DNA from: Saprospirales bacterium | GTDB taxonomy: Bacteria > Bacteroidota > Bacteroidia > Chitinophagales > Saprospiraceae | Length of the DNA: 64,000 nucleotides | Assembly (NCBI GenBank): GCA_016719895.1 | Contig: JADJYG010000031.1 | Coordinates: 130,288-194,287 of the forward strand | Direction: 5' to 3' | Shown: positions 42,189 to 55,938 of the stretch, piece after piece | Layout: every line of letters begins with the position of its first letter | Numbering within the stretch: the first letter of the stretch is position 1 | The notes under the pieces: generated by a model | Database searches by the model: none | Told to the model about the DNA's origin: nothing | Seen by the model: only the letters and a program-made list of their open reading frames with translations | Position numbers and translations under genes: made by a program

Positions 42189-43348
42189 GCGGCGTTGAGG
42201 ATGTCGGTGGCGTTGGCGAGGATGTCGGCGGCCAGTTTGTTGCGGGCGGCCTGGCGGGCGTCGGGGTGGAGCGTGTCCTGTTGTTCGTTGAAGTCGGCGT
42301 GGCGGCTTTTGAGCAGCGACACGGCGGTTTTGCCGGCGTCGGTTTGGGCGGCGGCTTCGAGTTCGTTGAGGGCGTTGGTGAAGTCGTTTTCCTCCACGTA
42401 CTGGCGCACGAAGGCCAGGCGGGCGTCGAAGGGACGGTCGGTGCGGCGCACGAGGGAGGGGTGTTCGGCGCGGAAGGCGTCGAGCAGGTCGCGCAGGAAA
42501 TCGTCCTGTGCGGCCCAGTCGAGCGGGGCCATATGGAAATGGCCTTCGAAGAAGCGCTTGAAGTCGGCGCTGGGATAGTCGGGCTGGGCGGCGAATTTTT
42601 CGCGGTTTTCGATGATTTCGGTCAGGAGCTGGATGAGCATCTGGGTATGCCATTTTTCCAGTTCGAAGCCGAGGAAGATAAACTTGTCGGCGTCGGCCAG
42701 GGCGTCGGTGAGGCCTTTGGGCAGGCGGCTGGTGTCGAGCACGCTTTTCATGTACTTGTACAGGTCCTCGTAGTCGAGGATGATGGATTCGTGGTCGTCC
42801 ACCGAGCCGCAGAGGTTGTACACCAGGGGTTTTTGGAGGGTGGGCGGGGCTACTTTGCGGACCTCCTTGTTGCCGCCCACAAAAAAGCCCGTCTGGTGCT
42901 GGGTCTGCCAGGCGGCCAGGCTGGCCGAGAGGAATTTATCGGGTGTGGTGCTGATGACGAGGTGCAGGGGCAGTTGGGCGAGCAGGCGGAGGGTTTCGGC
43001 GTTTTCGGCCTGGAACTCCGGGTCGGTCCAGAGGTTGCGGAGCCATTCCTTGGCTTTTTTTTTCACGCGGATGCGGGCGGAGGTGCCGGAGAAGAGGAAG
43101 AGGGCTTCCTGTTCGTAGTAGAGTTCGATGTCGCCGGGTTTGGCGAGTTCGAGCAATTGTTCGCGCAGGTAGCGCTGCACGGGCACGCCGCGGAAGCGGA
43201 GCAGGTTGGGGCCGGCGAGCAGCACGCAGCCGGTGTTTTTGATGCTTTCGACGGTATCGTCGAGATCGAAGACGGGAAGAGGAAGGGCCATAGGCGCGTT
43301 CAAATGTGTGTTTTTGGCGGGATTAAAAGTAGCGTTTTTTGTATACAT
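42185..43348 (-). CDS. SIR2-like (SIR2_2 family) protein with C-terminal helical adaptor (EAD-like) tail
   Basis: The order of blocks matches SIR2_2: GCVLLAGPNL, LHLVISTTPD, VYNLCGSVDDHESIILDYEDLY, FIFLGFELEKW. A roughly 100-aa helical tail follows (LLKSRHADFNEQQDTLHPDARQAARNKLAADIL). An alternative start lies at 43291 (MALPLPVF). Confidence 0.65.
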   Translation of the reverse strand: MYTKNATFNPAKNTHLNAPMALPLPVFDLDDTVESIKNTGCVLLAGPNLLRFRGVPVQRYLREQLLELAKPGDIELYYEQEALFLFSGTSARIRVKKKAKEWLRNLWTDPEFQAENAETLRLLAQLPLHLVISTTPDKFLSASLAAWQTQHQTGFFVGGNKEVRKVAPPTLQKPLVYNLCGSVDDHESIILDYEDLYKYMKSVLDTSRLPKGLTDALADADKFIFLGFELEKWHTQMLIQLLTEIIENREKFAAQPDYPSADFKRFFEGHFHMAPLDWAAQDDFLRDLLDAFRAEHPSLVRRTDRPFDARLAFVRQYVEENDFTNALNELEAAAQTDAGKTAVSLLKSRHADFNEQQDTLHPDARQAARNKLAADILANATDILNAA

Positions 43349-43962
43349 CGCTTTATGGTAATCCGACTTCCCGGTTCAGGTCAAACTCAACGAGTCTGAC
43401 GAAACGGTATCCAAAACGATTTACACCAGGGCTGAGCAGAAAAATCTCGCTGATTTATTCGGGTTTTGATTTTGGGTGTACCAGTGTCGAAAACAGGAAG
43501 GCGGGCTAAGCGGCTTTCCCTCGTTAACGAGACGTTAAAAAAATACTCCTGTATAACCCTATTTAAGTTGCTTAAAATCAATTAGTTGCACTTGTTTTTA
43601 ATTTTCATTGGTACAGAATTTAGTGCAATAAATTTTTTCTCTTACCCGCGTTTTTCTGTCAAATTTCTACGCTGCCGGGGCATCTCCTCCCCTTCTGGCG
43701 CCACTGCATTAAAGCCTTTCCCAGTGATTTTCTTCGCTGTTTGATGGTTGCTGGCAACATATCGCCGCAGCAAATCGGCCAACCCTTAAGTATGTTTTTC
43801 CAACACCAGCCTTAACAAAAGTCGCAAGATTTATGTCTGGTTGAAACAAAATGTTTTTAAAAACGAATCGGTACGCTATATTTGCCACTGTCTTAAAAAA
43901 CAGACCGATTACTCATGAAGTCGACCAAGGTTGTCCAGTTATGCATCCGGTTAAGGCTAATA

Positions 43963-44460
43963 TTACTTGCTAAGAGTGGCAGCCACATCATTGAGACCCA
44001 AAAGGTTGACGAGGTCGATTGTGGGAAACCGGACAATGACTCTCAGGTAAACACTGACGACCAGACCCAATTGATCCAACCGCTTTAACTCCGGGTAATC
44101 CACGAATGCTTGCGCACAGGCTAACTTGAGCATATATATTTGATTGGTGCTCAACTCGGCCGGATACTGTTGTAAAACGAATTCGTACAACTGCTCCACC
44201 TCCTCTTCCGTGGGCTCACCGCGCAGTTCTAAAGATTTATTTTTTCCTAAGTATTTCTCTCCTTCGCCTGTCATAATCCACAACGGATTGACATTGGCAT
44301 CATTCAAAAGTCGCTCTAAGTGTTCCAGGCGCAAGTTTCCTTTGCCCTCACCCTTTAGAATATTTGAATAGTAGGACGCCTCAATGCCCATCAATTCTGC
44401 CATTTGGGCCTTATTTAAGCCCAAATCCCGCCTAATTTCTTCTAACCTGTCTGTTTTCAT
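43963..44460 (-). CDS. XRE-family HTH transcriptional repressor (CI-like)
   Basis: N-terminal HTH LGLNKAQMAELMGIEASYYSNILKGE. Divergent from a small HTH gene across a 115-bp AT-rich region. Confidence 0.8.
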   Translation of the reverse strand: MKTDRLEEIRRDLGLNKAQMAELMGIEASYYSNILKGEGKGNLRLEHLERLLNDANVNPLWIMTGEGEKYLGKNKSLELRGEPTEEEVEQLYEFVLQQYPAELSTNQIYMLKLACAQAFVDYPELKRLDQLGLVVSVYLRVIVRFPTIDLVNLLGLNDVAATLSK

Positions 44461-44477
44461 ACCGCGATAAGGGTAAT

Positions 44478-44524
44478 AATTAAAAATATCTAAACTATTT
44501 TTTGATAATTTAAAATATCTGAAT
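44478..44524. promoter_or_regulatory. candidate operator repeats in the repressor/cro intergenic region
   Basis: Two near-identical boxes, aatTAAAAATATCTaaa (44478-44494) and aattTAAAATATCTgaa (44507-44524), lie between divergent genes. Confidence 0.4.
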
Positions 44525-44575
44525 ATTTTTGCCCTGTCAATTCACAAATCAAAACGCAAAGAACGCAAAAAAGGA

Positions 44576-44839
44576 ATGACCAAATCCGCTGATATCGTTC
44601 AACTGCGCATGGAACTTCGGGCGAAGTTCCGGCAAGAATATGGCTCAGTGACTGCTTTTTGCAGAGAGCGGGGCATCTCGCCGGAATGGCTTCGGTTGGT
44701 ATTTGCGGGGAGGTATGAGGGATATGATTTGCTGGTCGAAGCCGCCGAATTTCTAAGCCGCTATAAGGAAGAGAAACAGGCTCAACGGCTGCAAAAACAG
44801 CGCTATTTTGCCGAAAAGGTAGCCAATTTGCCGCTCTAA
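44576..44839 (+). CDS. small Cro/CII-like DNA-binding protein (putative)
   Basis: 87 aa with an HTH-like segment (SVTAFCRERGISPEWLRLVFAG). Its position opposite the repressor supports the call. Confidence 0.5.
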   Translation: MTKSADIVQLRMELRAKFRQEYGSVTAFCRERGISPEWLRLVFAGRYEGYDLLVEAAEFLSRYKEEKQAQRLQKQRYFAEKVANLPL

Positions 44840-44887
44840 TTCAAAACAATTTGAGTAAAAATTTAATACAACCAATTTACGCGACTT

Positions 44888-45313
44888 ATGATCTCTCTCA
44901 GTCAACAGGAACTTCAGCAGCTGGAATCACAAATAAACGAGGTCTTGATGAATGTGATCGGCAAGGCGGGAGGTATCCTTTCCGGCATGGCCGTCAGCCC
45001 GCATTGGATCAGCCACACCGATGCGATGCAAAAACTGGGCTGGCCGAAGATCCTGCTGAAAAGAGGCGTGGAATTGGACCACTTGCACCCTATCGTAATT
45101 CCCGGCACCGGTGGTACGCAGTACGACCTGGAGGAACTGATGCGCTACAAGCATTTTCTGATGGACGAGCGGCGTGAAAGCCGGCTCCACCCACATTACA
45201 TATCCAATTTTCTGGCACAATCACAACCTGACACGCATGTATTACCTGACAATTCTCAAAAAGGACGCCCGGGAAATCGGCTACCTGGTCGCCGAAAGTC
45301 CGTTTCGCGATAG
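44888..45313 (+). CDS. hypothetical protein (possible excisionase/MerR-like HTH)
   Basis: 141-aa ORF. The central segment WISHTDAMQKLGWPKILLKRGVE resembles an excisionase-type HTH. The C-terminal roughly 35 aa look non-coding and overlap the next ORF. Confidence 0.4.
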   Translation: MISLSQQELQQLESQINEVLMNVIGKAGGILSGMAVSPHWISHTDAMQKLGWPKILLKRGVELDHLHPIVIPGTGGTQYDLEELMRYKHFLMDERRESRLHPHYISNFLAQSQPDTHVLPDNSQKGRPGNRLPGRRKSVSR

Positions 45314-45479
45314 CAAAGAACAGGACGAGCATATCGACATCCGCTTAGACCAGACCACGGAAGAAGAAGCGGTGCTCGAAGCTACGAAATTTGTCGAAAG
45401 GCACCGCCTGACCTATTGGGAGGTGCACCACGTCGTACAGGTAGCGGGCTGTCACATCACCAACGGTGATTGGGATTAA
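45237..45479 (+). CDS. hypothetical protein
   Basis: 80 aa from the ATG at 45237 with coding-like composition (MYYLTILKKDAREIGYLVAE...). Overlaps the tail of the previous ORF, so one of the two boundaries is wrong. Confidence 0.35.
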   Translation: MYYLTILKKDAREIGYLVAESPFRDSKEQDEHIDIRLDQTTEEEAVLEATKFVERHRLTYWEVHHVVQVAGCHITNGDWD

Positions 45480-45516
45480 TTTTTTTGCCCCAGCAGTTGC
45501 ACATGCGGGGCATACA
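45480..45516. repeat. 37-nt T7 + hairpin repeat, copy A
   Basis: TTTTTTTGCCCCAGCAGTTGCACATGCGGGGCATACA matches 49591-49627 at 33 of 37 positions. Intergenic, 70 nt upstream of the 45588 start. Confidence 0.85.
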
Positions 45517-45587
45517 TACGACCAACAGCAAAACGCTCATATCCGGTGGCCCCGAGGACTCGGGGCCGCCACTTTTCTCCTTTCGTT

Positions 45588-47396
45588 ATGACGGCATCCA
45601 AGTCGAATTCCCGCCCCACTCCGAATGCTTGGGAGCAGGAACACCACAACCTGCAACGTATCCTGAACCTCGACATCAACCTGCGCCGGGAAGAACTCAA
45701 AGACGCCCTCCTGGACTACGAGGATGCGCACCCGGGCAACAACCTGGTGGGCAGTAAGGTGTACGAATTCCTGCGGCACTGCCAGAACATCGTCTGGAAG
45801 CAATTGGCTGAACTGGCCGTGTCTAATCCGGCGGAATACGAGCTGTGGCGCGCCGGCCAGCGCGGCCACTGGCCCTTGCAGACCAACAACGTCGCCCACG
45901 GGATGCTGCTCCGGCTTTCGGAAGGCCGGCGGGCGCAACTGCACGAAGTGGGCGCCGCCATCGAGCGCACCAAATCCGGGATGCCGGTGATTTCCGATAA
46001 CATTCGTCGCACGGTCCAAAACTGGCGCCGCAAAACGACGGCTGCCTGGGTCACGCAAAGCGGCGACACGCTGAAAGGTTTCCCGTTCTTCCTGTCCTGG
46101 ACGCGCCTCAACCGTGCCGGAGAGCCCGATCCCAAAGGCCGTGGCAACGTGATCGGCTTGGTCAATTTGACCTGGATTTTCGGCCCGGAATGGGCAGATG
46201 CCACGGGCGAAAATGCGACCGATTCCGAGCCAAATGCGGCGGGACAACAGGAAAAAATTTCCACAATTCCCCCAATAATTAAAACCGTTGAAAAAAAGAA
46301 GAAGGAAGAGGAGCGGCTTTCCGCTGAAGCGGAAGACGTTTTTTTCCAGTCGGCAAAGCCGACAGAACCGGGGGTAAAAACCGCCCAACAGCAAGGAACG
46401 CCCTCCGGTGATTCCGGGCAAATTTTTGAGCAAAAAAATATTGCGGCTCCCCCGCCCGCTGCCGGCGGCGGCGCGCTGGCACGGGCGGCCGTGCTGTGGC
46501 AATTCCTGTTGGCCCGGATTTACCTGCCACTTTTGGGGACTGGCCGGATCCGGCATAGTTCTGAAAATGCCTACTTGAAGGACCATTTCATGTCCTACAC
46601 CGCCCAAAAATGCGTGGAATTGCTCGTCGAAAACCTGCATTCAGCCCGAAATGCGGGCGATGTCACCCTCGAAGAGGCCGAAATGCGGCTTCGTCAAGCC
46701 ATCGAAAGCCAGGCCAAATACCTGGAAGACAATCCTGAAACCTGGGTACTAACACCCGAAAAGTTCATGCGGCCGGATCGTCCACACGGCACCCTGCTGA
46801 GCGCCCTGCGATTGTTCGTGAAAGAACCGCACACCCCGCAAATTCCGCCCGAAAACCCGGAAAACGAATCCGCCCGCGAGCGCAAAAACCGGCTGTATGC
46901 CCACTTGCTCTCCCTCGGCGCCAACCGCACCCATCCCGGCACCTTCTCCCGTTGGTATTCCGAATACGGCCCGCAGCACCTGGAGGCCTGCATGACCTAC
47001 ATGGCCCAGCAAGCCGAACGCCGACGCCAGGCTGGAAAGCCGCAAAAACGGGAATTCGACAGCAACCGGGGCGGCGCTTCGGCCTATTTCGCCAGCCTGA
47101 TCGCCCGTTTCGATAGCCAGGGTGTACAACGCGAACTGGAACTTTCCGAACGGCAAAAAATCAAAAATGCGCTCTGGGAAAAGGTCTTCGCCATGCAAGC
47201 CAAGCAGACTTCGCCCGAAATAGAACAGCTCCGGGCAGATATGTCGGTGATCTACCACCGCATGTGCGCGGAGCCGGATTTCCGCGACGCTACCCTGCGC
47301 GACACCAACGCTTTTTTCCAAATGCGGATCGAAAACTACACCACGCCGACTTTCATCGTGCTGGCACACCACGTCCTTCAACAGCAACACAACTGA
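45588..47396 (+). CDS. large hypothetical protein (candidate replication-module protein)
   Basis: 602 aa from the ATG at 45588. No recognisable motif. First gene after the hairpin repeat and upstream of dnaB. Confidence 0.55.
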   Translation: MTASKSNSRPTPNAWEQEHHNLQRILNLDINLRREELKDALLDYEDAHPGNNLVGSKVYEFLRHCQNIVWKQLAELAVSNPAEYELWRAGQRGHWPLQTNNVAHGMLLRLSEGRRAQLHEVGAAIERTKSGMPVISDNIRRTVQNWRRKTTAAWVTQSGDTLKGFPFFLSWTRLNRAGEPDPKGRGNVIGLVNLTWIFGPEWADATGENATDSEPNAAGQQEKISTIPPIIKTVEKKKKEEERLSAEAEDVFFQSAKPTEPGVKTAQQQGTPSGDSGQIFEQKNIAAPPPAAGGGALARAAVLWQFLLARIYLPLLGTGRIRHSSENAYLKDHFMSYTAQKCVELLVENLHSARNAGDVTLEEAEMRLRQAIESQAKYLEDNPETWVLTPEKFMRPDRPHGTLLSALRLFVKEPHTPQIPPENPENESARERKNRLYAHLLSLGANRTHPGTFSRWYSEYGPQHLEACMTYMAQQAERRRQAGKPQKREFDSNRGGASAYFASLIARFDSQGVQRELELSERQKIKNALWEKVFAMQAKQTSPEIEQLRADMSVIYHRMCAEPDFRDATLRDTNAFFQMRIENYTTPTFIVLAHHVLQQQHN

Positions 47397-47398
47397 TC

Positions 47399-48121
47399 AT
47401 GCAGACCGCCACCGCCACCCGCCGCCCGCCCCGCAAACGCCGCAAAACCCGTTGGCAATACGGCCCGGAATCCGAGTTCAAAATGCTGGTGTTCACCGGC
47501 GACCGCTGGCTCGCGCCGCTGTACTCGCACGACGTACCCAACAAGGCCATCGCCAGGGGAACGCGGGCCGAATTCTCCCAGGCGCAAAAGATCGAGCGGC
47601 TCCAGCAGTTGTTCGCCAAAGGCGGCACCCGGGGAAATGCGTTCAGCCCGCTGGCCGTCACCTTTGCGGTGATTTTGCCCAACTTTGGGAAAATGACCGA
47701 CGCGGTGTCGCGCTGGTCGCCGCATTCCGGTTGGCAAGCAGCGCAGCGAAAAGCACCCTCCCCTCTTCCGAAATGCGCGTGGCGACTATGGCTGGCCGGC
47801 AGCCCGAATTACACGTTCCGGGCCGATCCCCAATGCGGCGAGTTCCGGCAATTTGCGGCGGATTTTGCGGCGAGTAAGCCGGATTTAGTTGCCCGCTTTG
47901 CCGATCCGGAATCCGGCGAATTGCCGCATTCCTTCTTAGTCGCGGCTTTCCTGGGCGAAGTTGCCCGGCGATTGCAAGCCAAACAGAAATACGCCCGCGC
48001 CTATATCTATCACGGCGAATCCACACAACCCGTTTTGCGTGTTGATCTGGCTTCCGGCCGCTTATGTGGCATCGGCCAGGGCGGCGGCTGGGTCTCACCC
48101 GAATTTTTCTTTACGCTTTAA
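47399..48121 (+). CDS. hypothetical protein
   Basis: 240 aa from the ATG at 47399, 2 nt after the upstream stop. Basic N-terminus (RRPPRKRRKTRW). Confidence 0.5.
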   Translation: MQTATATRRPPRKRRKTRWQYGPESEFKMLVFTGDRWLAPLYSHDVPNKAIARGTRAEFSQAQKIERLQQLFAKGGTRGNAFSPLAVTFAVILPNFGKMTDAVSRWSPHSGWQAAQRKAPSPLPKCAWRLWLAGSPNYTFRADPQCGEFRQFAADFAASKPDLVARFADPESGELPHSFLVAAFLGEVARRLQAKQKYARAYIYHGESTQPVLRVDLASGRLCGIGQGGGWVSPEFFFTL

Positions 48122-48217
48122 TCCGCCAAACCCATGCGCGATCAACGGCCCAACTCTTCCCGCGAATACCCGTCCAGAATGCGGCAAAATCCGGCCCAAA
48201 TGCGGGAAGATGCCGGC

Positions 48218-49747
48218 ATGTCGCAATATGTTTTTGGCAAAATCCCGCCGCAGGCCCTGCCCCTGGAAGAAGCCGTCCTGGGCGCGCTGATGATTGACCG
48301 GGAAGCGATGAACATTGTCTCGGATTTGCTCACGCCCGAGGCATTTTACACACCCGCACACCAGGCCATCTACCAGGCGATAATGCGGCTACACGACCAG
48401 CAACACCCCGTGGACCTTCTCACCGTGACCGAGGAACTGCGCAAATGCGGCGAGTTGGAGCGCGCGGGTGGCAGTTATTACTTAGTGGAACTGACCAACC
48501 GCGTGGCATCTGCGGCCAACATCGAGTATCATAGCCGCATTATCCAGCAAAAACACATCCAACGGCAGATCATCGCCACCGGCGCCAAAATGGTGAAGGA
48601 CGGCTACGAAGACACCATCGACTGTTTCGCTGCGCTCCAAAATGCGGAGCAGGGTTTATTCGCCATTACCCAAAATACGCTGTCTCGCTCCAGCACCAAG
48701 GTGGCGTCTCTCGCATTTTCAACGTTCAAACAGATTGAACAGAATGCCCTGAAAGCACGAACGGGCGATGGCATCACCGGAAAATCATCCGGCATTGCGG
48801 AAATAGATGCCCTGACCGGCGGCTGGCACGACTCCGACCTGGTGATCCTCGCCGCCCGGCCAGGAATGGGTAAAACCGGATTTGCGCTTTCGGTGGCGAT
48901 AAATGCGGCGAAATGCGGTATTCCCGTCGCATTTTTCAGTTTGGAAATGGCCAATATGCAATTGGTCATGCGCATGATGGCTATGCTGGGCGAGGTTAAC
49001 GGTCAAAAAATGCGGGACGGCAAACTCTCCGATGAGGATTTGATGGTCCTGGCCGGAGCCGCCGAACAGCTGCATAACCTGCCCATCTACCTGGACGATA
49101 CACCCGGCATCAGCATCCCGGAAATGCGGGCCAAATGCAGGCGGCTCAAGCGGCAACACGATATTCAATTGGTCATCGTGGATTACCTGCAACTGATGAC
49201 CCTCACGCCCGGCGGCATGGAAAACAAAAACGCCAACCGCGAGCAGGAAGTGTCCGGTATCAGCCGGGCCTTGAAGGGCCTGGCCAAGGAACTGAACGTG
49301 CCGGTCATCGCATTGTCGCAGTTGAGCCGGGCCGTGGAAACACGCGGTGGCGCCAAGCGCCCGCAACTCTCCGACCTGCGTGACAGCGGCGCGGTGGAGC
49401 AGGATGCGGACATCGTATCGTTCATCTACCGGCCCGAATACTACGGCATTCTGGAGGATGAAGCCGGCGAATCGCTCAAAGGCATTGCCGAGATCATCTT
49501 CGCCAAAAACCGGCACGGCGATACCGATACGGTGAAAGTGAAATTTGAAAAACAGTTCACCCGCTTTTCGACGCTGGAAAACCACCCGCATTTTTTTGCC
49601 CCGGTAGTTGCAAATGCGGGGCATAGACAAAGTGGCACGCCCAATAATCCGGCGAGTTTGGGCGGCGACGCTGCCTTTCCCGACAGCCCGCCGCCCTACG
49701 GCGGGATAAAACCCACCAGCCGCAACGACAAGGACATTCCATTTTAA
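48218..49747 (+). CDS. dnaB: replicative DNA helicase DnaB (element-encoded)
   Basis: Start at the ATG at 48218 (MSQYVFGKIPPQALPLEEAVLGALM). Walker A ARPGMGKTGFALS, Walker B LVIVDYLQLM and SQLSRAVETRGG. Long Bacteroidota-style C-terminal tail ending in PF. Confidence 0.9.
   Translation: MSQYVFGKIPPQALPLEEAVLGALMIDREAMNIVSDLLTPEAFYTPAHQAIYQAIMRLHDQQHPVDLLTVTEELRKCGELERAGGSYYLVELTNRVASAANIEYHSRIIQQKHIQRQIIATGAKMVKDGYEDTIDCFAALQNAEQGLFAITQNTLSRSSTKVASLAFSTFKQIEQNALKARTGDGITGKSSGIAEIDALTGGWHDSDLVILAARPGMGKTGFALSVAINAAKCGIPVAFFSLEMANMQLVMRMMAMLGEVNGQKMRDGKLSDEDLMVLAGAAEQLHNLPIYLDDTPGISIPEMRAKCRRLKRQHDIQLVIVDYLQLMTLTPGGMENKNANREQEVSGISRALKGLAKELNVPVIALSQLSRAVETRGGAKRPQLSDLRDSGAVEQDADIVSFIYRPEYYGILEDEAGESLKGIAEIIFAKNRHGDTDTVKVKFEKQFTRFSTLENHPHFFAPVVANAGHRQSGTPNNPASLGGDAAFPDSPPPYGGIKPTSRNDKDIPF
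49591..49627. repeat. 37-nt T7 + hairpin repeat, copy B (inside the dnaB 3' tail)
   Basis: TTTTTTTGCCCCGGTAGTTGCAAATGCGGGGCATAGA. Stem tgccccg/cggggca with a 13-nt loop. Confidence 0.85.
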
Positions 49748-49760
49748 AACATCCCAAGCT

Positions 49761-50135
49761 ATGACACCACTCCTGGAACAACACCCGGCGGGTCTGCACG
49801 TCGCCCGCGCACATGAAGTGCCGGATTATTCCGGCGCTACAGCGCTAAAACGCCGCATTATCCGGCACAAAGCGCCGCATTTCAATCCAACCAGCCGCAT
49901 TTCCTTGCACATACTGGACTGGATCGGCCGTGCACAACTCAAACCTATCGTGCCCTGCGAATGGCTGCACACAAAAGCCCTCCGACTCGCCTTATGCTGC
50001 AATCCCTACCCCACCGGTCCCTGCGACCGATGGCTGCTGTGCCGGCCCGATGGTGTGGCTTGCTTCACGGCTGCATCCCCGGAAATCGCCCGCCTGCATT
50101 TCTATTCTATCACCGGTAGCCTTCATGCTGCCTAA
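49761..50135 (+). CDS. hypothetical protein
   Basis: 124-aa ORF co-directional with the block. Cys-rich. No family recognised. Confidence 0.4.
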   Translation: MTPLLEQHPAGLHVARAHEVPDYSGATALKRRIIRHKAPHFNPTSRISLHILDWIGRAQLKPIVPCEWLHTKALRLALCCNPYPTGPCDRWLLCRPDGVACFTAASPEIARLHFYSITGSLHAA

Positions 50136-50146
50136 AAATCCCTGCT

Positions 50147-50578
50147 ATGAACAACCATAAAAAATCACCGCGCTACGCCGTGTCCTGGTGGCTTTGGAAC
50201 GGCGAAACCTTTGAACGCCACGACCTTGAAGTGGAAGCTGTGGAGATCGCCAAATGCGGCAAGTACCGCTTTTTTCGAATCGCAAATGCGGTGAATAATC
50301 CAAAGCCCGGCCGCGAATGGCTTATTGCCGAGGGCGGCACCGGATATGTGCTGGCCTACGGTCCGGATGCACAGACGGCGCTCAAAGTGGCGCGTGGGCG
50401 CTTTCAGTTTGAAAAGGAAGGGATTCGGGAAGCGGATGTGACTTGTTTTATTCAGGGGCATTTGAACTCCTTGCAACGACACGTAGGCCACTTACCGCAT
50501 TTCCAACTTCCCGCGCCGCATAAGAACATCACTCCGATCCTTCAAGCGGGAGAAATGCTCCTCGCCCAACTCATCTGA
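50147..50578 (+). CDS. hypothetical protein
   Basis: 143-aa ORF with coding-like composition, tightly packed between neighbouring genes. Confidence 0.5.
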   Translation: MNNHKKSPRYAVSWWLWNGETFERHDLEVEAVEIAKCGKYRFFRIANAVNNPKPGREWLIAEGGTGYVLAYGPDAQTALKVARGRFQFEKEGIREADVTCFIQGHLNSLQRHVGHLPHFQLPAPHKNITPILQAGEMLLAQLI

Positions 50579-50584
50579 ATTATC

Positions 50585-52159
50585 ATGACCTGCATCTCGA
50601 AAAATGCGGCGAAATCGCCGGATTTCCTGCTTATCGACTTGTTTTGCGGCGCCGGCGGTACTTCCACCGGCGCCGAGAAAAGCGGCGTTTGTAAAGTAAT
50701 CGCCGCAATCAACCACGATCCGCTGGCGATTAAAAGTCACGCGGCAAATCACCAGGGCGTATTGCACCTGACCGAAGATATCCTCCAGGCTGACATCACG
50801 CCGATTCAAAATGCGGTCGATTATTGGAAAATGCGGTACCCCGACGCCGCATTGGTATTATGGGCCAGTTTGGAATGCACTAATTTTTCCAATGCAAAGG
50901 GGGGCTTGCCCCGCGATGCGGATTCCCGCGCACTCGCGGACGGCCTTTTCCGGTATATCGACGCATTACAGCCGGATTATCTGCTCATCGAGAACGTGGA
51001 AGAGTTCATGGCTTGGGGGCCTTGTATTCCAAAGGTGATTCAATGCACGGACGGCGACTATTGCCCGCTTCACTTCGACCGGAAAAAAGGCAAAATGCGG
51101 CCCTACCTGGTTCCGGAAAGCCGCAAATCCGGCAAGGACTATGTGCGCTGGGTAAAAAAGGTACAGTCGCTCGGCTACTGCCACGACTGGCGTTTGCTAA
51201 ATGCGGCGAATTTCGGTGGCGTGACCATCCGGGAGCGGTATTTCGGCGCATTTTGGCGGCCTGGCGCCGCATTTTCATGGCCGGAACCTACGCACGTAAA
51301 ACGTCCGGCCAGCGGCAACCTGTTCCGGGAAAAACTGAAACCCTGGAGGCCGGTAGCCGAGGTGCTGGATTTCCCGGATTTGGGCCGCAGCATTTTCGAC
51401 CGCAAAAAGCCGCTGGTGGATCGCACTTTGCGGCGAATTCTGTCGGGTTTGCGGAAATACCATACAAAGCCGTCTGTGATGACCTGCAACTCGCCCGGCT
51501 ATTGTACCGGCGTCGATCAACCGGTGGGCGCCGTCACCACCGCCGGTCATAAGGCGCTGATAACGCCCATGCTGCAATCGTACTTTGGCAACGGACAGTG
51601 TTCGTCGGTCAAACAACCGGCTCCCACCTGCACGACGAAAGACCGCATGGCCTTAGTCAGTCCGATTTCCTGGATAGACCGGAATTTCATCAGCGGGCGC
51701 TCGCAGAGCGTTGCCGAGCCGGCGGGTAGCCTGCTCACGGTGCCGAAGATGAATCTGTGTTCCGCATTCCTGGTCAACCCGCAATTTCAAAGTGCCGGAA
51801 GCCCGGTGAGCGCCCCGGCTCCCACCATCATAGCCCGGCAAAAGTCCTATCCCCTATCCCTGGCTACACCGGTACTGGATGGCCCACCAAAATGGCAGGA
51901 AAATCCCGGCGATTCCCAGGTAATGCGAGAACTAAAGGCATTTATGCGGGCGCATGGCATTGCCGACATTTACATGCGGATGTTGAAAGTGATCGAATTG
52001 AAACGTATCCAGGGCTTTCCCGACCACTATGTTTTATACGGTCCGCAGCATGAGCAAAAGAAATTCATCGGAAATAGCGTCGAGACAGGTGTGGTGAAGG
52101 CCTGGTTTCAGGCGATGTCGGAGGCAAAGCAGGCGGAGCTTCAAAAAGCAGTTGCATAG
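50585..52159 (+). CDS. DNA (cytosine-5)-methyltransferase
   Basis: Motif I DLFCGAGGTSTG; catalytic-Cys variant motif ASLECTNFSNAKGG; ENVEEF; C-terminal QGFPDHYVL and IGNSVETGV. Confidence 0.85.
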   Translation: MTCISKNAAKSPDFLLIDLFCGAGGTSTGAEKSGVCKVIAAINHDPLAIKSHAANHQGVLHLTEDILQADITPIQNAVDYWKMRYPDAALVLWASLECTNFSNAKGGLPRDADSRALADGLFRYIDALQPDYLLIENVEEFMAWGPCIPKVIQCTDGDYCPLHFDRKKGKMRPYLVPESRKSGKDYVRWVKKVQSLGYCHDWRLLNAANFGGVTIRERYFGAFWRPGAAFSWPEPTHVKRPASGNLFREKLKPWRPVAEVLDFPDLGRSIFDRKKPLVDRTLRRILSGLRKYHTKPSVMTCNSPGYCTGVDQPVGAVTTAGHKALITPMLQSYFGNGQCSSVKQPAPTCTTKDRMALVSPISWIDRNFISGRSQSVAEPAGSLLTVPKMNLCSAFLVNPQFQSAGSPVSAPAPTIIARQKSYPLSLATPVLDGPPKWQENPGDSQVMRELKAFMRAHGIADIYMRMLKVIELKRIQGFPDHYVLYGPQHEQKKFIGNSVETGVVKAWFQAMSEAKQAELQKAVA

Positions 52160-52272
52160 GCATTTGATGGGGACTTGGGTATAAACCAGGCATGTATGAT
52201 AAAAACGTAGAAAATAATCAAAAATAATACACATATTTGCAACGAAATTTTAAACCAAAATACACTGCACCC

Positions 52273-52827
52273 ATGAAAAACCTGTTTATCCTTCTGCCCT
52301 TGCTGTGCCTGACCCTATCGCTGAACGCACAGCAACTGCAACCCGCCATCGTTAAAGCCGTCCACGACGGCGACAGTTACAAACTCTCTTTCGCAAATGC
52401 TGAAAAGCCCGATAGCGCCGTTTGGGTGCGTCTCTACGGCGTAGATGCGCCGGAAGTGCGTTTTCCGGGCGTCATCCCCTTCGATCAACCCTACAGCCGC
52501 GCCGCTGCCGACAGCGTTCGCCAACTCATCAAAGGTCAAACGGTGCTGGTCAAGTACCGGTATTCCGATGTGTACAAACGTCCGGTATGTGAAATATTCT
52601 TCACTGTGAAAAATCCGGAGCAGGCGCCCGACACGCTTGATTTGGCGCAGTATATCGTCTCGAAAGGCTGGGCCTGGTACAGGGCGGAGCAGAAAAACAC
52701 GAAGGCGAATAGCTTGATGAAAAAGATTCAGGCGTATGCGAAGGGGCAGAAAGTGGGGCTTTGGGGGGAGAAGGGACGAGCGGTAAGGCCGGACACGTTT
52801 CGGAGGAGGTTTCGGACTAACAACTAA
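52273..52827 (+). CDS. secreted thermonuclease (SNase)-family nuclease
   Basis: Start at the ATG at 52273 with signal peptide MKNLFILLPLLCLTLSLNAQ. SNase motifs VHDGDSYKL and VRLYGVDAPE. Confidence 0.8.
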   Translation: MKNLFILLPLLCLTLSLNAQQLQPAIVKAVHDGDSYKLSFANAEKPDSAVWVRLYGVDAPEVRFPGVIPFDQPYSRAAADSVRQLIKGQTVLVKYRYSDVYKRPVCEIFFTVKNPEQAPDTLDLAQYIVSKGWAWYRAEQKNTKANSLMKKIQAYAKGQKVGLWGEKGRAVRPDTFRRRFRTNN

Positions 52828-53003
52828 AAAATACCTGATACCATTAAATCGGCTATACCACTTGCCCTATGGACGCTGGGCGTGTCATTGATGTATGTAC
52901 ACGCATGCATCAATGACAGGGCAATGTTTACAACTTTTTGTTGTTCAAAATCTTTGAAGCCGTACCTTTACATCGGTTTCAAATTAAATTTACCTCATTT
53001 CCC

Positions 53004-53957
53004 ATGAATGCCCACGAACGTTACTTCGCACGAATCCTATTCAGGAACAAAGTCCTTGAATCAAAGGGCATGGAGTTTCAGCGCTTTTTTGTGGAAGTAA
53101 TGAGTAGTGCCAATCCTAACTTCCGAAATCCAAAACCACATGGAAAAAAAGGAGATGGGAAATGTGACGGCTACGACGTCAAAACAGGGCAGTTTTATCA
53201 AGTATATGCACCGGAAAAGCCGGCAGAGCCAAAGCAAATTACAAAGGCAGCGACTAAACTTAAAGAGGCTTTCGAAGGCTTGCTAAAAGAGTGGGGTACA
53301 TTTACAGAAGTAAAAGAGTTCTTTTTCGTTTACAATGATCTATTTTGGGGAGGTGTATATCCAGAGATTGATAGGCACTTGAGTGAACTACGTGAAAAAC
53401 ATGGAGTCCCATGCTTATTGTTTCTATCTAAAGATTTGTATAAGGTTTTTGAAACATTGGATGCCGATGCAAAGGCCAATTGCCTTCAATGTTTGATCCC
53501 TGAGTCAACAGTCAGTAATTCAATGGTCAGTTTTGAAGCATTAAATGAAGTGATTGAACACATTGTAGCATTGCCTTATATCCCATCCAAACCGGGAAGT
53601 ATCGTGCTTAACCCTGAATTTCTAAGAAAAATCGAATTCAATGCACTAACCCAACCTGTCGCCGATTTATTAAAACGAGGGGCTTACCAAGTTGGCGCAC
53701 TGAATCGCTATTTTGAACTGGATACGGATTTGAAAGTAATTTTGCAGCAAAAATTTTCAGGCCTTTATGAAGAAGGCAAACAAAAAATTACTAGCGCTAG
53801 CCCTGAACAAAGCGACGAGTTGTTTTTTTATATCTTTGAAAAGGCTTGCCCCGAGCACCCGAAGAAGTATTTTGGCGATGCTGTAGAGGTGCTGATGTCT
53901 TATTACTTTGAATGCTGCGATATTTTTGAACCGCCGAAAACCACGCTTTTTGACTGA
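53004..53957 (+). CDS. ABC-3C system effector-type protein (N-terminal restriction-endonuclease-like region plus helical C-terminal domain)
   Basis: 317 aa from the ATG at 53004. The N-terminus EFQRFFVEVM...GKKGDGKCDGYDVKTGQFYQVYAP resembles Mrr-like PD-(D/E)xK cores. First gene of a tightly packed three-gene low-GC cassette. Confidence 0.55.
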   Translation: MNAHERYFARILFRNKVLESKGMEFQRFFVEVMSSANPNFRNPKPHGKKGDGKCDGYDVKTGQFYQVYAPEKPAEPKQITKAATKLKEAFEGLLKEWGTFTEVKEFFFVYNDLFWGGVYPEIDRHLSELREKHGVPCLLFLSKDLYKVFETLDADAKANCLQCLIPESTVSNSMVSFEALNEVIEHIVALPYIPSKPGSIVLNPEFLRKIEFNALTQPVADLLKRGAYQVGALNRYFELDTDLKVILQQKFSGLYEEGKQKITSASPEQSDELFFYIFEKACPEHPKKYFGDAVEVLMSYYFECCDIFEPPKTTLFD

Positions 53958-53959
53958 AC

Positions 53960-54205
53960 ATGATTTTGCCGAATAAACATATTACTGTTTCGCAGTCGAT
54001 CTGGGGCCTCGCGGCTTTTCTGCTGACGTTTTTGGAATCGCCCAAAACGGTGGACGAACTTTGGGCAAAGTTTGAAAAAATAAACGACACCCAGCAATTC
54101 CCGGCAAAACACTCTTTTGAACGGGTCGTGCTGGCGCTCGATTTTTTATACCTGATTGATGCCATTGATGTAACCCAGGAAGGAAAAATTAAACGATGCG
54201 CCTGA
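53960..54205 (+). CDS. ABC-3C middle component (small helical/wHTH-like protein)
   Basis: 81 aa. Starts 2 nt after the upstream stop and overlaps the downstream ATPase gene by 10 nt. Its size and position are typical of ABC-three-component middle components. Confidence 0.55.
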   Translation: MILPNKHITVSQSIWGLAAFLLTFLESPKTVDELWAKFEKINDTQQFPAKHSFERVVLALDFLYLIDAIDVTQEGKIKRCA

Positions 54206-55938
54206 TTGAGCTGACTGCAAATCAAGAGTCTTTTAATACGATCTCGTTTAACCGGACGGGACTGTCTCTGATTTTGGCTTCGCAAAAGGTGGACGACGCT
54301 CAGAAAACGTATAACAGCACAGGCAAGTCGCTTTCCATTGCCTTGACCCATTTTTGTTTAGGTTCTAGTTCGATAAAGCAATTAGAAAAGCACCTGTCGG
54401 GCTGGGAATTCTCCCTGACCTTTGAAATAAACGGCGTGGAATACACGAGCCGTCGGGCAACCGACAATCAAAATCAAATTTTCCTGAACGATACCAAATA
54501 CCGTCTTGGCGACTTCAACGCTTTTTTATTTGATTTGCTTTTTGAGCCGGTAGACGACCTTGATTCCATTTCTTTTCGTTCGTTGATTTCGCGTTTCATA
54601 CGTCCCGGAAGGGGTAGTTACAAAGACGCAACTACATTTATTGATAAAGAGAAAAAACCGTACGCTGAACTGCTTAATAACACCTATCTGCTGGGTTTAG
54701 ACCCTAAACTTGTTTTTGACAAGTACAAACTAAAGAAAGACCTTGAGGAGGCGGAATCTTTTAATAAGCAATTTATCAAAAAGCCTGAATTTCAAAAACT
54801 TGTATCCGACTCGGGTGGCAAAAATATTGACATCAGCATTCGCAATCTCAAAGACGATGCTGAGCGACTTAAACAGGCGTTGGATACATTTGTGGTGGCA
54901 GATGATTACCACCTCATTAAGCAGGAAGCCGATGATTTTGCCCGACTAATTGCGGAACGACAAAATGAAATCACCCGGCTTCAAAATGCCGTTAACAATA
55001 TTGAAACCACACTCGCCCTACGTAAAGATGTCCCCGTTGAAAAAGTACTTCGCTTGTACGAAGAGGCGCGGGTAGAACTGCCTGAAATGTTGAAAAAAAA
55101 CATACAGGAGGTAGAGCAGTTTCACAAGTCATTACTTTCCGACCGCAGTAATCGCCTTACAAAGGAAAAGCAATTGTTTGAAAAGCAAATCCAGCAATTG
55201 ACAACGGAGATTGGCGCATTGGGTGAGCAGCAAGGTAGACGCTTGCAAATGTTGAAAGGTAAGGGCGCATTGGATCAATACATGGCTTTGAGCCAAAAAC
55301 TGTCTGAAACAGAGGAGCGGTTGCAGCGTTATGAACTCTTCCGGGATATTACCACCCAACAGAAAAATAAAATCAATGAGATTCAAATTGGTCTCAAAGC
55401 GGGCAATATCGCGGCTAATAATTATCTAACAGAAACCGCCATGCCCGTTTTAGAGGAAAACATTTCGATGTTTCAATCCATCGTTCGGCAATGCTATGAC
55501 GATAAAAACGCAGGTATTGAAATTGAAAACAACGAAGGCAACAATCAAATCCGTTTCAATATAAATCCCTTCATTGACTCGGATGGCGGCGGCGGTATCA
55601 ATAAGGTCAAGATTTTTTGTTTTGACTGGACACTTTTGCTTGCTCAACACTGTCACAAGGTGAAATTCATCTGGCACGACAGCCTGATTTTTGAAGGCGT
55701 TGATCCGCGCCAGCGCGCTACACTACTCAAATTCGCCTACGAGGAATCAGAAAGACGTGGTTTTCAGTACATCATCGCCCTGAATCAGGACGAATTTGAA
55801 GCCGCCCGAAGAGACCTCGAAAGCCTTAGTCCGGGGTTGCCAGATAAAATCCTGAAACGCAGGGTGTTGGAGTTGACGGATGAGTCGGATGCTAATAAGT
55901 TGTTGGGGGTTTATGTGGAGATGAATTTGATGCGGTAG
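54196..55938 (+). CDS. DUF2326-type ABC ATPase with coiled-coil insert (ABC-3C ATPase)
   Basis: 580 aa. N-terminal degenerate Walker A YNSTGKSLSIALTHFCLG. A roughly 300-aa coiled coil splits the head. C-terminal Walker B/D-loop region FIWHDSLIFEGVD. Confidence 0.7.
   Translation: MRLIELTANQESFNTISFNRTGLSLILASQKVDDAQKTYNSTGKSLSIALTHFCLGSSSIKQLEKHLSGWEFSLTFEINGVEYTSRRATDNQNQIFLNDTKYRLGDFNAFLFDLLFEPVDDLDSISFRSLISRFIRPGRGSYKDATTFIDKEKKPYAELLNNTYLLGLDPKLVFDKYKLKKDLEEAESFNKQFIKKPEFQKLVSDSGGKNIDISIRNLKDDAERLKQALDTFVVADDYHLIKQEADDFARLIAERQNEITRLQNAVNNIETTLALRKDVPVEKVLRLYEEARVELPEMLKKNIQEVEQFHKSLLSDRSNRLTKEKQLFEKQIQQLTTEIGALGEQQGRRLQMLKGKGALDQYMALSQKLSETEERLQRYELFRDITTQQKNKINEIQIGLKAGNIAANNYLTETAMPVLEENISMFQSIVRQCYDDKNAGIEIENNEGNNQIRFNINPFIDSDGGGGINKVKIFCFDWTLLLAQHCHKVKFIWHDSLIFEGVDPRQRATLLKFAYEESERRGFQYIIALNQDEFEAARRDLESLSPGLPDKILKRRVLELTDESDANKLLGVYVEMNLMR

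Follow-up and report, generated by a model that had tools for sequence, protein, structure and literature searches.

Among the nearest described relatives of the array reported here are the iterons found in replication origins of phages and plasmids, e.g. those of lambda O and ori-lambda inside the O gene or the type I iterons, 8 bp long, of satellite phage P4. In both cases the replication module contains short repeated words, bound by an initiator or, here, by a putative one, and some of these words fall within the gene that encodes this (putative) initiator. Copies are direct or inverted and keep helical phase, and an AT-rich stretch adjoins some clusters (here in the o602 linker region, and at a non-coding cluster in the related prophage L008). 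Known iterons are, however, few (4-12), clustered within a few hundred bp and mostly 17-22 bp long, whereas the present array has about 76 sites, each with a core of 8 bp, at synonymous positions over 6.7 kb and six genes, and the initiator is only a candidate.

Lambda Xis, P2 Cox and 186 Apl are small winged-helix recombination-directionality or switch proteins with arrays of boxes. The present sites resemble these boxes in being short, asymmetric direct repeats in helical phase, a layout suited to cooperative binding in a filament-like manner, and o141, itself small, basic and winged-helix-like, is likewise encoded in the early part of the lytic operon, although its fold assignment is not significant. 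Those arrays, located at attP or the lysis-lysogeny switch, comprise 3-7 boxes; here, dozens of sites lie across replication genes. Chi, uptake sequences (USS/DUS) and KOPS share with our word that a short 8-mer is over-represented and that its density rather than its position is maintained, but they are strand-polar words of whole host chromosomes. The word studied here is essentially missing from host DNA and keeps to one phage module of 6.7 kb; it is specific to phage lineages and non-polar in its degenerate form.

In cluster A mycobacteriophages (L5, TipsytheTRex), stoperators are 13-mers in promoters and short intergenic gaps genome-wide, which are bound by the immunity repressor and act in a strictly orientation-dependent manner (PMC9283540). 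Like the sites described here, they number more than 20, are short and asymmetric, serve a monomeric phage protein (here a putative one), are dispersed over transcribed prophage regions and favour one orientation, here among exact copies. Unlike stoperators, our sites are 8-mers, almost all intragenic, limited to one operon, orientation-neutral as a degenerate motif, and unaffected by exchange of the immunity repressor, as seen in the relatives L004-L009. The locus is most likely a dense protein-docking array of a kind not described before.

Abundance and placement of the word

The word lies in a temperate phage whose left arm is contained in the DNA analysed; the surrounding genome is that of a member of the Saprospiraceae/Lewinellaceae (Bacteroidota). 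The window, i.e. the whole 64-kb stretch of DNA that was analysed, contains 27 exact copies of AAATGCGG, 24 of which (19 on the plus and 5 on the minus strand) lie inside 46232-51274; the other 59 kb hold only three, at 20795(-), 37089(+) and 61587(-). Our recount agreed with an earlier, sequence-only reading of this DNA in the number, strands and implied positions of the 24 copies, and in finding only two in the 43 kb of host DNA to the left of the phage, where the word is thus not enriched. The single copy which that reading noted in the rest of the element exists, but at 61587 instead of 61597, and the variant CAATGCGG starts at 47831, not at 47830. Its chance expectation of about 0.15 copies per 5 kb was too low: dinucleotide shuffles gave 6.4 copies per 64 kb (about 0.5 per 5 kb) and a local order-3 Markov model 2.4 per 6.7 kb, which corresponds to a 10- to 48-fold excess over the range of both models.

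The word fills one operon (Table 1). Exact copies in the methyltransferase gene (six) are all found within its first 700 bp, and o240 contains nine one-mismatch copies and no exact one. Plus-strand exact copies split 9/6/3 over the three reading frames, one copy being non-coding; the use of all three frames had been claimed before, and the readings K-C-G, N-A-E and M-R given for dnaB were correct. The array sits mostly at silent codon positions, with about one word (close variants included) per 90 bases. When the six genes of the word-rich zone were shuffled with codon usage and amino acids kept (n=2000), a check that the sequence-only reading had proposed, the mean was 4.4 copies (sd 1.75, maximum 10), compared with 23 genic copies observed. 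Together with the synonymous-site conservation and comparative data given below, this backs the earlier view that the word is short and that the DNA rather than the encoded protein is under selection; the word is confined to the replication module.

Table 1. Features of the replication module and its surroundings (window coordinates)
Feature	Position	Strand	Remarks
Full enriched zone, WWT[G/C]CGG[C/G/T]	45501..51979	.	begins a short way upstream of o602 and extends to the methyltransferase gene's end
Exact-copy span, AAATGCGG/CCGCATTT	46232..51274	.	from positions and shuffles
CI-like HTH repressor	43963..44460	-	immunity region
Divergent AT-rich switch region	44461..44575	.	own operator-like repeat TTAAAAATATCTAAA / TTTAAAATATCTGAA; no copy of the word
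o141	44888..45313	+	small and conserved, encoded a short way upstream of the zone; structure model
o602	45588..47396	+	first gene of the zone; conserved two-domain protein of unknown fold (alignment and model)
o240	47399..48121	+	conserved protein of unknown function, encoded where a helicase loader gene would sit, with o602 on one side and DnaB on the other
DnaB-type replicative helicase	48218..49747	+	PF03796 3.7e-100, PF00772 3.2e-32; 8 exact copies
o124	49761..50135	+	small conserved ORF; 2 exact copies, both on the minus strand
o143	50147..50578	+	small conserved ORF; 3 exact copies; in all relatives including distant ones
C5 cytosine DNA methyltransferase	50585..52159	+	last gene of the zone; missing from several word-keeping relatives
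AAATGCGA and AAATGCGG, 21 bp apart, then a 60-70 bp AT-rich stretch (GC 0.30)	46211..46310	+	in the part of o602 coding for the disordered linker
Three tandem sites GAATGCGG, AAATCCGG, AAATGCGG in the dnaB leader	48177..48205	+	non-coding; starts 48177, 48187, 48198
Tandem pair, 10 bp apart, inside dnaB	48901..48918	+	codes INAAKCG; kept in 9-10/12 genomes
Inverted pair CCGCATTT-N18-AAATGCGG	49586..49619	.	near the dnaB 3' end
Three sites TAATGCGG, AAATGCGG, AAATGCGG in o124	49853..49902	-	22- and 20-bp spacing

Degenerate form, helical phasing and site clusters

When the word was relaxed to WWT[G/C]CGG[not A] (last base C, G or T), 76 copies were found over 45500-52200, one per ~88 bp. The zone had a density of 11.3/kb, the left-hand 43 kb one of 1.5/kb and the remaining phage one of 2.1/kb. 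One-mismatch and degenerate copies reach from 45501 to about 51980; the island recognized earlier is real, and somewhat wider than thought. The 19:5 strand bias is limited to exact copies and gone for the degenerate motif (39 plus, 37 minus).

Same-strand spacings of the degenerate word peak at 10, 21, 32 and 42 bp, in keeping with the 10.5-bp helical repeat (Rayleigh p 7e-5, n=32 short-range pairs), and a 3-bp signal is absent. A weak replication of the phasing came from distant relatives (p about 0.003, from partly non-independent sets). With 19 of 24 exact copies on the coding strand, an mRNA-level signal was considered, by which an RNA-binding protein or a sequence-specific endoribonuclease would target the replication transcript. 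Phasing at 10.5 bp is, however, a property of duplex DNA, the degenerate motif has no strand preference, the enriched word of the distant relative L174 is split 7+/13-, and copies on the two strands are equally conserved (the minus-strand site at 49875 in o124 is kept in 12/12 genomes), which makes a signal in the RNA highly improbable.

Several sites form clusters (Table 1). In the dnaB leader, where the sequence-only reading had seen the word at 48177 and 48198, the latter is exact, but the former is a one-mismatch form and a third site lies between them. These sites are spaced by 10 and 11 bp, the last one ends 13 nt before the ATG, and they are conserved in relatives, the first being an exact copy in L004-L010. 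The AT-rich stretch in the disordered linker of o602, a linker defined from the alignment and structure model, is a possible unwinding element; a role as origin would be conjecture. A non-coding cluster in L008 packs five sites into about 120 bp and adjoins a roughly 100-bp AT-rich stretch.

Conservation, turnover and gene exchange in related prophages

Eleven related prophages (77-99% DNA identity) carry 3.35 copies/kb in the module compared with 0.074/kb outside it (121 kb of flanks). The total per module stays at 17-26 copies, although individual sites turn over: L010 has only 11/24 sites in common, yet about 20 module copies (19-21 by the bounds used). Density, not site position, is maintained. 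In every pairwise comparison the word was retained more often than background 8-mers, e.g. 14/17 against 0.26 in L008. Alignment of homologues, another check proposed earlier, revealed that the word is kept at synonymous sites: third codon positions within it had a mean pairwise identity of 0.888 with 68% invariant, compared with 0.696 and 32% elsewhere (p 9e-10).

These data largely refute the idea of a functionless by-product, whether of ancestry, of composition, of codon or amino-acid usage or as a relic of a word-rich donor genome. Close relatives do have much sequence in common by descent, but the observed count was never reached by codon-preserving shuffles, synonymous conservation within the word is well above background, sites are gained as well as lost at a constant total, distant relatives are enriched at different positions, and recently inserted genes inside or adjoining the zone are without the word. 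We regard this explanation as scarcely credible.

In distant relatives, whose o602 is 38-48% identical, related words are enriched, namely AATGCGG (L040, L043, L169), TTTTGCGG (L039), AAAGCGG (L173) and AATCCGG (L174; a total of 20, with 18 inside the module and an expectation of about 0.8). They occur at non-homologous positions, and such lineage-specific words fit a co-evolving, phage-encoded reader. A host protein, nucleoid-associated or a replication factor, which the phage recruits or titrates, would explain why all co-resident and heteroimmune relatives have the same word, as expected if hosts had the reader in common, and why the search turned up no phage reader. Against it stand the lack of enrichment in 43 kb of adjacent host DNA and 121 kb of relatives' flanks (about 160 kb of host flanks in all) and the change of the word with phage lineage (G/C switch, TTTT or AAA tract), for which a phage-encoded reader is the simpler account; a host reader is therefore rather improbable.

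The word tracks o141, o101, o602, o240, dnaB and o143, and is independent of the immunity genes and the methyltransferase. In L004-L009 the CI-like repressor is replaced by unrelated genes and the Cro-like HTH is swapped, with the word unchanged; L004-L006, L008, L023, L173 and L175 have the word at full density with the methyltransferase missing from the module. Together with the unenriched host DNA, these exchanges argue against Chi, uptake, methylase-context, RNA-level and repressor-operator readings.

Recognition by the C5 methyltransferase, as suggested earlier, or by another modification enzyme, e.g. for epigenetic control of the module, has in its favour that the word contains GCGG or CCGG and that a C5 methyltransferase gene closes the zone here and in L040, L043 and L174. 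The relatives that keep the word without this gene contradict it, the 4-mer [G/C]CGG alone is barely enriched (52.7 vs 42.7 per kb), phasing and module restriction are left unexplained, and a specificity prediction for the methyltransferase gave no result; we consider methylation very unlikely. The two other hypotheses rejected, a Chi-like guard of replicating phage DNA against host RecBCD/AddAB and an uptake or packaging word, are slightly less probable still. The GCGG end, as in the AddAB Chi sites named in the sequence-only reading, and the bias among exact copies favour Chi, but host DNA is unenriched, the degenerate motif and the distant relatives show no strand bias, phage lineages differ in their words, the array spans just 6.7 kb although the phage genome is longer, and helical phasing would be irrelevant to a translocating nuclease. 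Only the remaining one of the four hypotheses, a dense binding array for an element-encoded DNA-binding protein, fits the phasing, strand-equal motif, non-coding clusters and lineage variants. Altogether, the earlier interpretation is partly supported.

Putative role and candidate readers

We infer that the sites are bound by a protein, which protein this is, and that replication rather than regulation is the purpose. In our preferred reading, which has about an even chance of being right, they are phased binding sites on double-stranded DNA for a conserved phage protein and act as dispersed iterons. The word would be the core of a short asymmetric site, in the family an A/T tract followed by [G/C]CGG and in this phage AAAT[G/C]CGG. 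Some 76 of these would be embedded on both strands, mostly at synonymous positions, in the o602-o240-dnaB-o124-o143-methyltransferase operon. Because neighbouring sites share one face of the helix, the bound proteins could interact along the DNA and might build one large nucleoprotein complex over the module. Its likeliest role would be that of a cis-acting organiser or origin zone recruiting the o240/DnaB machinery. Sites would be confined to the module because it is the unit of exchange between phages, so that binding protein and sites would be inherited together. No characterised origin resembles an 8-bp site dispersed through 6.7 kb of coding sequence, which counts against an origin role. 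Moreover, L040, L043 and L169 have a separate classical clustered iteron, AACATGGG, which may be their true origin, leaving the dispersed word another job.

The same sites could instead control transcription, a phage protein throttling or silencing the early replication operon by autoregulation or stoperator-type roadblocks. The zone is one co-directional operon and stops at its end, three phased sites directly precede the dnaB start codon, exact copies are biased 19:5 toward the coding strand, and the separate iteron of L040-type relatives would suit this role. A precedent exists in cluster A mycobacteriophages, where the repressor blocks elongation at its asymmetric sites, of which there are more than 20 (PMC9283540). 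Stoperator action is orientation-dependent, however, and the bias disappears in the degenerate motif and in L174; the immunity repressor was exchanged with the word unchanged, and the first three genes of the operon are without any site. Transcription control is thus an unlikely, if serious, competitor of dispersed iterons.

As to the reader, the sequence-only reading had pointed to the element's small HTH proteins. The CI-like repressor and Cro-like HTH are out, since both were swapped without a change of the word; most likely candidates are the conserved o141, small and winged-helix-like, and the highly conserved N-terminal domain of o602. The latter protein is a 100% match to the NCBI hypothetical protein IPM81_22570 (Saprospirales bacterium), and searches of PDB, BFVD and Pfam detected no fold or sequence relative. 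Among its invariant residues N, R, T, W and G predominate and acidic ones are scarce, which in our reading of the alignment suggests a binder rather than an enzyme. The o141 model has an N-terminal helix, a beta-alpha-alpha-beta-beta-alpha core of winged-HTH topology and a basic C-terminal tail (KGRPGNRLPGRRK). Its best fold matches were all winged-helix DNA binders, at non-significant E values of 0.1-1, and the o141 homologue of L173 gave a faint match to PF12728 (HTH_17).

The word-rich replication module

An exact search of the 64-kb window returned 27 copies of the word AAATGCGG (CCGCATTT when read on the minus strand). Twenty-four lie within 46232-51274, 19 on the plus and 5 on the minus strand, and the remaining three are at 20795, 37089 and 61587. 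The copy count and position list of the sequence-only reading were borne out by this search apart from two slips (61597 should read 61587 and 47830 should read 47831), and the site at 48177 departs from the word by one mismatch. With dinucleotide composition preserved, shuffled versions of the window contained 6.4 ± 2.5 copies per 64 kb, i.e. about 0.5 per 5 kb, and a local order-3 Markov model predicted 2.4 copies in 45500-52200 compared with 24 observed (z 13.9). Except for 1 non-coding copy, the exact copies are intragenic (23/24), and across the copies the word is read in all three frames of the window genes, as had been proposed. When synonymous codons were shuffled within each of six genes, keeping proteins and codon usage unchanged, a mean of 4.4 copies was obtained (sd 1.75; no more than 10 in any of 2000 trials), compared with 23 genic copies observed; the claimed over-representation thus withstood codon-preserving shuffling. 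A non-functional origin of the word is contradicted by these results and retains next to no probability. AAATGATG, an altered form of AAATGCGG, would serve as a control sequence for the word.

The stretch 45500-52200 contains 76 copies of the degenerate form WWT[G/C]CGG[C/G/T] (39 on the plus and 37 on the minus strand), with AAATCCGG as the most frequent variant in the window. Sites of this form occur from 45501 to 51979, on average 85 bp apart, and their density in the module is 11.3/kb versus 1.5/kb in the left 43 kb and 2.1/kb in phage DNA outside the module. Given the 39:37 balance of the degenerate sites, the 19:5 skew of the exact copies is most simply explained by coding constraint and not by functional polarity. 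A window scan found no copy of the word between 43500 and 45500, and one copy lies in the 7.6 kb of phage DNA that the window holds beyond the module.

From about 43.5 kb onward the window covers a temperate phage's left arm, the main features of which are compiled in the table. The AT-rich switch region between the repressor and the Cro-like gene has a repeat of its own, AAAATATCT. The module is followed by a gene for a secreted SNase-like nuclease, by an ABC-3C-type defence cassette of low GC content and by other conserved phage genes; this downstream part has a single word copy. The protein encoded by o602, one of the phage ORFs of the replication operon, matches a hypothetical protein from a Saprospirales MAG at 100% identity, and the closest loci belong to Saprospiraceae and Lewinellaceae MAGs. 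Distant relatives have a tyrosine integrase, lysis genes and the gene order o602-o240-DnaB-x-methyltransferase as in the window, which indicates that the element is a prophage with its integrase at the far end, beyond the window. A Mu-like transposable phage, prompted by weak BcepMu gp16 and TniB-like matches, was considered and dropped because the relatives have tyrosine integrases.

Features of the phage left arm (window coordinates)
Feature	Position	Strand	Remark
CI-like HTH repressor	43963-44460	-	faces Cro-like gene over AT-rich switch region
Cro-like HTH gene	44576-44839		
o141	44888-45313		followed by o101
o602	45588-47396		word-rich gene
o240	47399-48121		word-rich gene
DnaB helicase	48218-49747		word-rich gene; followed by o124 and o143
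C5 cytosine methyltransferase	50585-52159		last word-rich gene

Maintenance of the word in related prophages

A DnaB-based scan yielded 11 long related loci and two fragments, all 77-99% identical at the DNA level across the module. Each of the long loci carries 17-27 word copies, all of them in 5-7 kb around dnaB, and taken together the 11 loci have 3.35 copies/kb in the module versus 0.074/kb in 121 kb outside. A Chi or uptake word, as suggested in the sequence-only reading, would be expected in the host: Chi is over-represented and skewed on host chromosomes, and USS/DUS occur about once per kb throughout host genomes. The window word behaves like neither. Host DNA is not enriched, with 2 copies in 43 kb, about the chance level, and 0.074/kb in the 121 kb of relatives' flanks, which cover part of the genome; likewise, TGCGG outside the module (3.1/kb) stays near the composition estimate (about 2.8/kb). 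Both functions are contradicted by these counts and appear highly improbable. At 37089, the host copy forms one arm of the perfect palindrome CCCCGCAT-GAA-ATGCGGGG (37080-37100); this resembles an ordinary terminator-type hairpin, so the copy has no relation to the phage array.

When 12 genomes were aligned, several sites proved to be present in 12/12, others had changed to one-mismatch variants, and new copies had appeared at other near-match positions. Among eight non-redundant genomes, third codon positions within the word showed a mean pairwise identity of 0.888 with 68% invariant, compared with 0.696 and 32% elsewhere in the same genes (Mann-Whitney p 9e-10), while first and second codon positions differed little between inside and outside. 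The expectation that the word is kept at synonymous sites was thus confirmed. In every pairwise comparison the word was retained better than all other 8-mers of the same genes, e.g. 11/24 versus 0.155 in the related prophage L010 and 14/17 versus 0.26 in L008. L010 has only those 11/24 sites in common with the window, yet its module contains about 20 copies (19-21 by the bounds used), which indicates that density is conserved rather than individual positions. The word is missing from recently inserted genes: the Dam-like methylase gene of L010 and, in the window, the cargo formed by SNase and ABC-3C genes. The L010 insert (12380-13220) encodes an N6-adenine methyltransferase with a DPPY motif between o143 and the C5 methyltransferase, and the 1.6-kb gap has no word copy, unlike its neighbours.

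Two single MAGs each harbour two related prophages of the family, L010 and L011 in JADJWX01 and L001 and L008 in CAUJEY01. The JADJWX01 pair has homologous repressor and Cro-like genes, 84-98% identical to those of the window; in the CAUJEY01 pair the immunity regions differ, and L008 has no homologue of the window repressor or Cro-like gene. The word is common to all four, raising the possibility of cross-talk between co-resident prophages.

Distant phages (o602 38-48% identical; 42-55% GC) enrich the word or a variant of it in the same module at non-homologous positions. Exact copies of AAATGCGG number 6-8 in each of L039, L040 and L043 versus about 0.2 expected, and TGCGG is the most over-represented 5-mer in their modules; L039 favours TTTTGCGG. 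AATGCGG is enriched in L169, AATCCGG(C) takes its place in L174 (20 copies, 18/20 in the module versus about 0.8 expected), L175 uses both AATCCGG and AATGCGG, and L173 uses AAAGCGG. Together with the commonest window variant, this defines the family-level signal as an A/T tract followed by [G/C]CGG in lineage-specific versions. The low-GC relatives show no strand bias (L174, 7 plus and 13 minus; L039, 3 plus and 3 minus). A reader encoded by the host fits poorly with lineage-specific variants, and the roughly 160 kb of host DNA covered is not enriched; we regard such a reader as improbable.

Searches for further relatives gave few hits. Distant blastn against 50,697 phage records found no phage relative of the module, with only short DnaB and methylase matches, and IMG/VR scans with o141 and o602 alignments found none. 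A two-word pattern (2-26 bp apart) occurred in IMG/VR at chance level only, with ≤6 copies per locus and none together with o602. A metagenome scan added 8 further loci. Looking up the exact DnaB sequence, from either of two candidate starts, gave no match. The literature search for the word returned primer sequences only.

Helical phasing and candidate readers

Among same-strand sites separated by 8-64 bp, the spacings cluster at 10, 21, 32 and 42 bp. For the few dozen pairs of the window a Rayleigh test at 10.5 bp gave R 0.55 (p 7e-5), and 3-bp periodicity was absent; opposite-strand pairs were phased as well, with another offset. The pooled distant relatives showed weaker phasing at the same period (p about 0.003), three of them being mutually related so that the sets are not fully independent. 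Non-coding DNA also carries clusters. The dnaB leader contains three sites with 10- and 11-bp spacing, the last ending 13 nt 5' of the start codon. In L008, where the methyltransferase gene is replaced (7652-7990), five sites (three CCGCATTT, one AAATGCGG and one TAATGCGG) occupy about 120 bp of non-coding DNA followed by about 100 bp of AT-rich sequence, an arrangement that looks like an origin or operator. At 46211-46310, in the o602 region coding for a disordered linker, a pair of sites spaced by 21 bp is followed by 60-70 bp of AT-rich sequence. The helical phasing, the use of both strands and the non-coding clusters point to a protein that recognises double-stranded DNA on one helix face, and its binding is probably cooperative.

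An RNA-level signal is contradicted by the data and extremely unlikely. A role as hairpins or terminators was also rejected: a few copies form stem-loop halves (50252/50266, 50602, 51267 and the host copy at 37089), and most have no partner. An RNA polymerase pause, considered because the word contains TGCG, was rejected since there is no conserved G 10-11 nt upstream of the putative pause and the relatives show no strand bias.

The word tracks o141, o101, o602, o240, DnaB and o143, all of which are present in every relative including the distant ones. In L004-L009 the repressor and Cro-like gene are swapped for unrelated genes while the word is unchanged, which excludes the immunity proteins as readers. 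Of the earlier proposal of an element-encoded binding protein, the general idea fits the array features, whereas the immunity HTH proteins are ruled out. The methyltransferase is absent from the module in L004-L006, L008, L023, L173 and L175, again with the word unchanged, so a methylase-dependent role is unlikely. The suggestion that the word provides a methylation context for the C5 methyltransferase, whose specificity was not predictable from PDB relatives, is contradicted by these modules, although an enzyme might be encoded elsewhere in those genomes, and we rate it as very improbable.

The o602 model has two well-predicted domains and a disordered linker (pLDDT 74 overall). A PDB profile search and Foldseek against PDB and BFVD identified no sequence or fold relatives in PDB, BFVD or Pfam. 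An exhaustive HMM search of 1.8 billion representatives returned only about 19 same-length relatives (representative clusters), among which there were no domain fusions or Pfam domains. Among the invariant residues of o602, N, R, T, W and G are frequent and acidic ones scarce, a pattern that we infer to fit a binder better than an enzyme. In the o141 model, an N-terminal helix and a basic tail flank a confidently predicted beta-alpha-alpha-beta-beta-alpha core (pLDDT about 88-90). The top Foldseek matches of the model are all winged-helix DNA-binding proteins, at non-significant E values (0.1-1); o141 itself has no Pfam match, and the L173 homologue matches PF12728 HTH_17 faintly. For o141, o101, o602, o240, o124 and o143 nothing was found in Pfam, PHROGs or NCBIfam (to E 0.1 for NCBIfam and 10 for Pfam). 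PDB profile searches gave no match, and the homologue search with o240 returned unnamed hypothetical proteins only. In addition, within 44888-45479, about 74 nt are read in two frames, by o141 and by the conserved portion of o101, which starts at about 45240. Both frames are kept in L007, and the two may be a true overlapping gene pair covering the basic tail of o141.

The best explanation, to which we assign about an even chance, is that a conserved protein encoded by the phage binds the word at an array of phased sites. Most likely the array would serve the o240/DnaB replication machinery as a dispersed iteron or organiser zone, with the candidate reader, o602 or o141, being co-inherited with the sites when modules are exchanged between phages. 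The need to keep binding protein and sites linked during such exchange would account for the confinement of the word to the module. Alternatively, the same sites might throttle or silence the operon. This transcriptional role is rather unlikely, but gains from a separate clustered iteron, AACATGGG, in L040-type phages, which is maybe their real origin. The AACATGGG repeat is of a classical type, with 7-8 copies in both orientations over about 800 bp in L040 (15929-16747), L043 (14505-14918) and L169. Located where the methyltransferase gene ends and in the gene after it, this repeat probably constitutes a compact origin or a set of operators. The window showed no comparable cluster. L175 contains 11 copies of TACCCCG.

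A bolder version of the binding-site array is doubtful, though conceivable: a family of temperate Bacteroidota phages would write a lineage-specific 'bar code' in silent positions of their replication genes, and a new-fold o602 or o141 would coat the 6.7-kb module as a distributed origin/loading zone or as a self-marking chromatin-like domain linking initiator and sites. Such a domain might serve shielding of the module or cross-control between co-resident prophages.

Known site arrays and genomic surroundings

The lambda ori lies inside the O gene, and P4 has 8-bp type I iterons. Iteron origins share with the window array repeated words in phase with the helix. They are compact (a few hundred bp) and adjoin an AT-rich unwinding element, whereas the window array is not compact and offers partial analogues only, i.e. 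two sites with the AT-rich stretch at 46211-46310 and five sites with AT-rich DNA in L008. Box arrays of the Xis/Cox/Apl type have a small basic winged-helix reader, with which the topology of the o141 model is compatible, its E 0.1-1 matches being non-significant. These boxes are located at attP or the lysis-lysogeny switch, and the word is missing from 43500-45500.

Stoperators of cluster A mycobacteriophages are >20 asymmetric 13-mers in promoters and intergenic gaps, bound in an orientation-dependent manner by a monomeric immunity repressor (PMC9283540). The window shares with them many short asymmetric sites in transcribed prophage DNA (24 exact, about 76 degenerate). It differs in three respects: stoperator orientation is tied to transcription, whereas the degenerate sites are balanced (39:37; L174, 7 plus and 13 minus; L039, 3 plus and 3 minus); the stoperator consensus co-varies with immunity, whereas the word is unchanged when the repressor is swapped; and stoperators occupy promoters and short gaps genome-wide, whereas 23/24 exact copies lie in genes of one operon. 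Being not compact, not polar, not tied to the immunity repressor and almost entirely intragenic, the array is set apart from iterons and stoperators. As judged from sequence, it would count as a variant of the dispersed protein-binding word arrays of phage genomes and as a member of neither group.

If true, the bar-code reading would describe a mode of phage genome organisation without a characterised counterpart. Provided that the sites are indeed binding sites, a phage can overlay essential genes with a dense second code, about one protein-binding site per 90 bp, selected at synonymous positions, and this code would co-evolve with the phage lineage. The system is a tractable case for reconciling overlapping protein-coding and binding-site constraints. 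It bears on how replication modules keep initiator and sites linked through mosaic exchange, and on the functions of o602, o240, o141 and o143 in Saprospiraceae phages, the hosts of which are abundant filamentous bacteria of activated sludge. Module-restricted, helically phased words of a W-tract and [G/C]CGG provide a signature for finding such modules in metagenomes.

Some features of the surroundings were also recorded. The staphylococcal-nuclease homologue (52237-52827), with a Bacteroidota-type signal peptide, is present in most relatives and lies just beyond the word-rich zone without a word copy. Behind it, two genes with ABC-3C-type defence domains (CTD10 PF20275, DUF2326) form a low-GC block (about 0.42-0.44) at 52938-55938, which is missing from all related prophages and marks a variable cargo slot directly after the replication operon and SNase gene. 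In the conserved downstream phage region, 61066-61884 matches a TniB-like AAA ATPase weakly (E 5.9e-5), and the remainder of 56.4-64 kb has no recognisable families. To the left of the prophage end (about 43.5 kb), the minus strand of 39474-43348 encodes a SIR2-like protein that carries an EAD11 domain and a 1059-aa fusion of a STAND NTPase with an FGE-sulfatase domain, which looks like a defence island adjoining the integration site. The GC content of 40-43 kb is unusually high (0.66).
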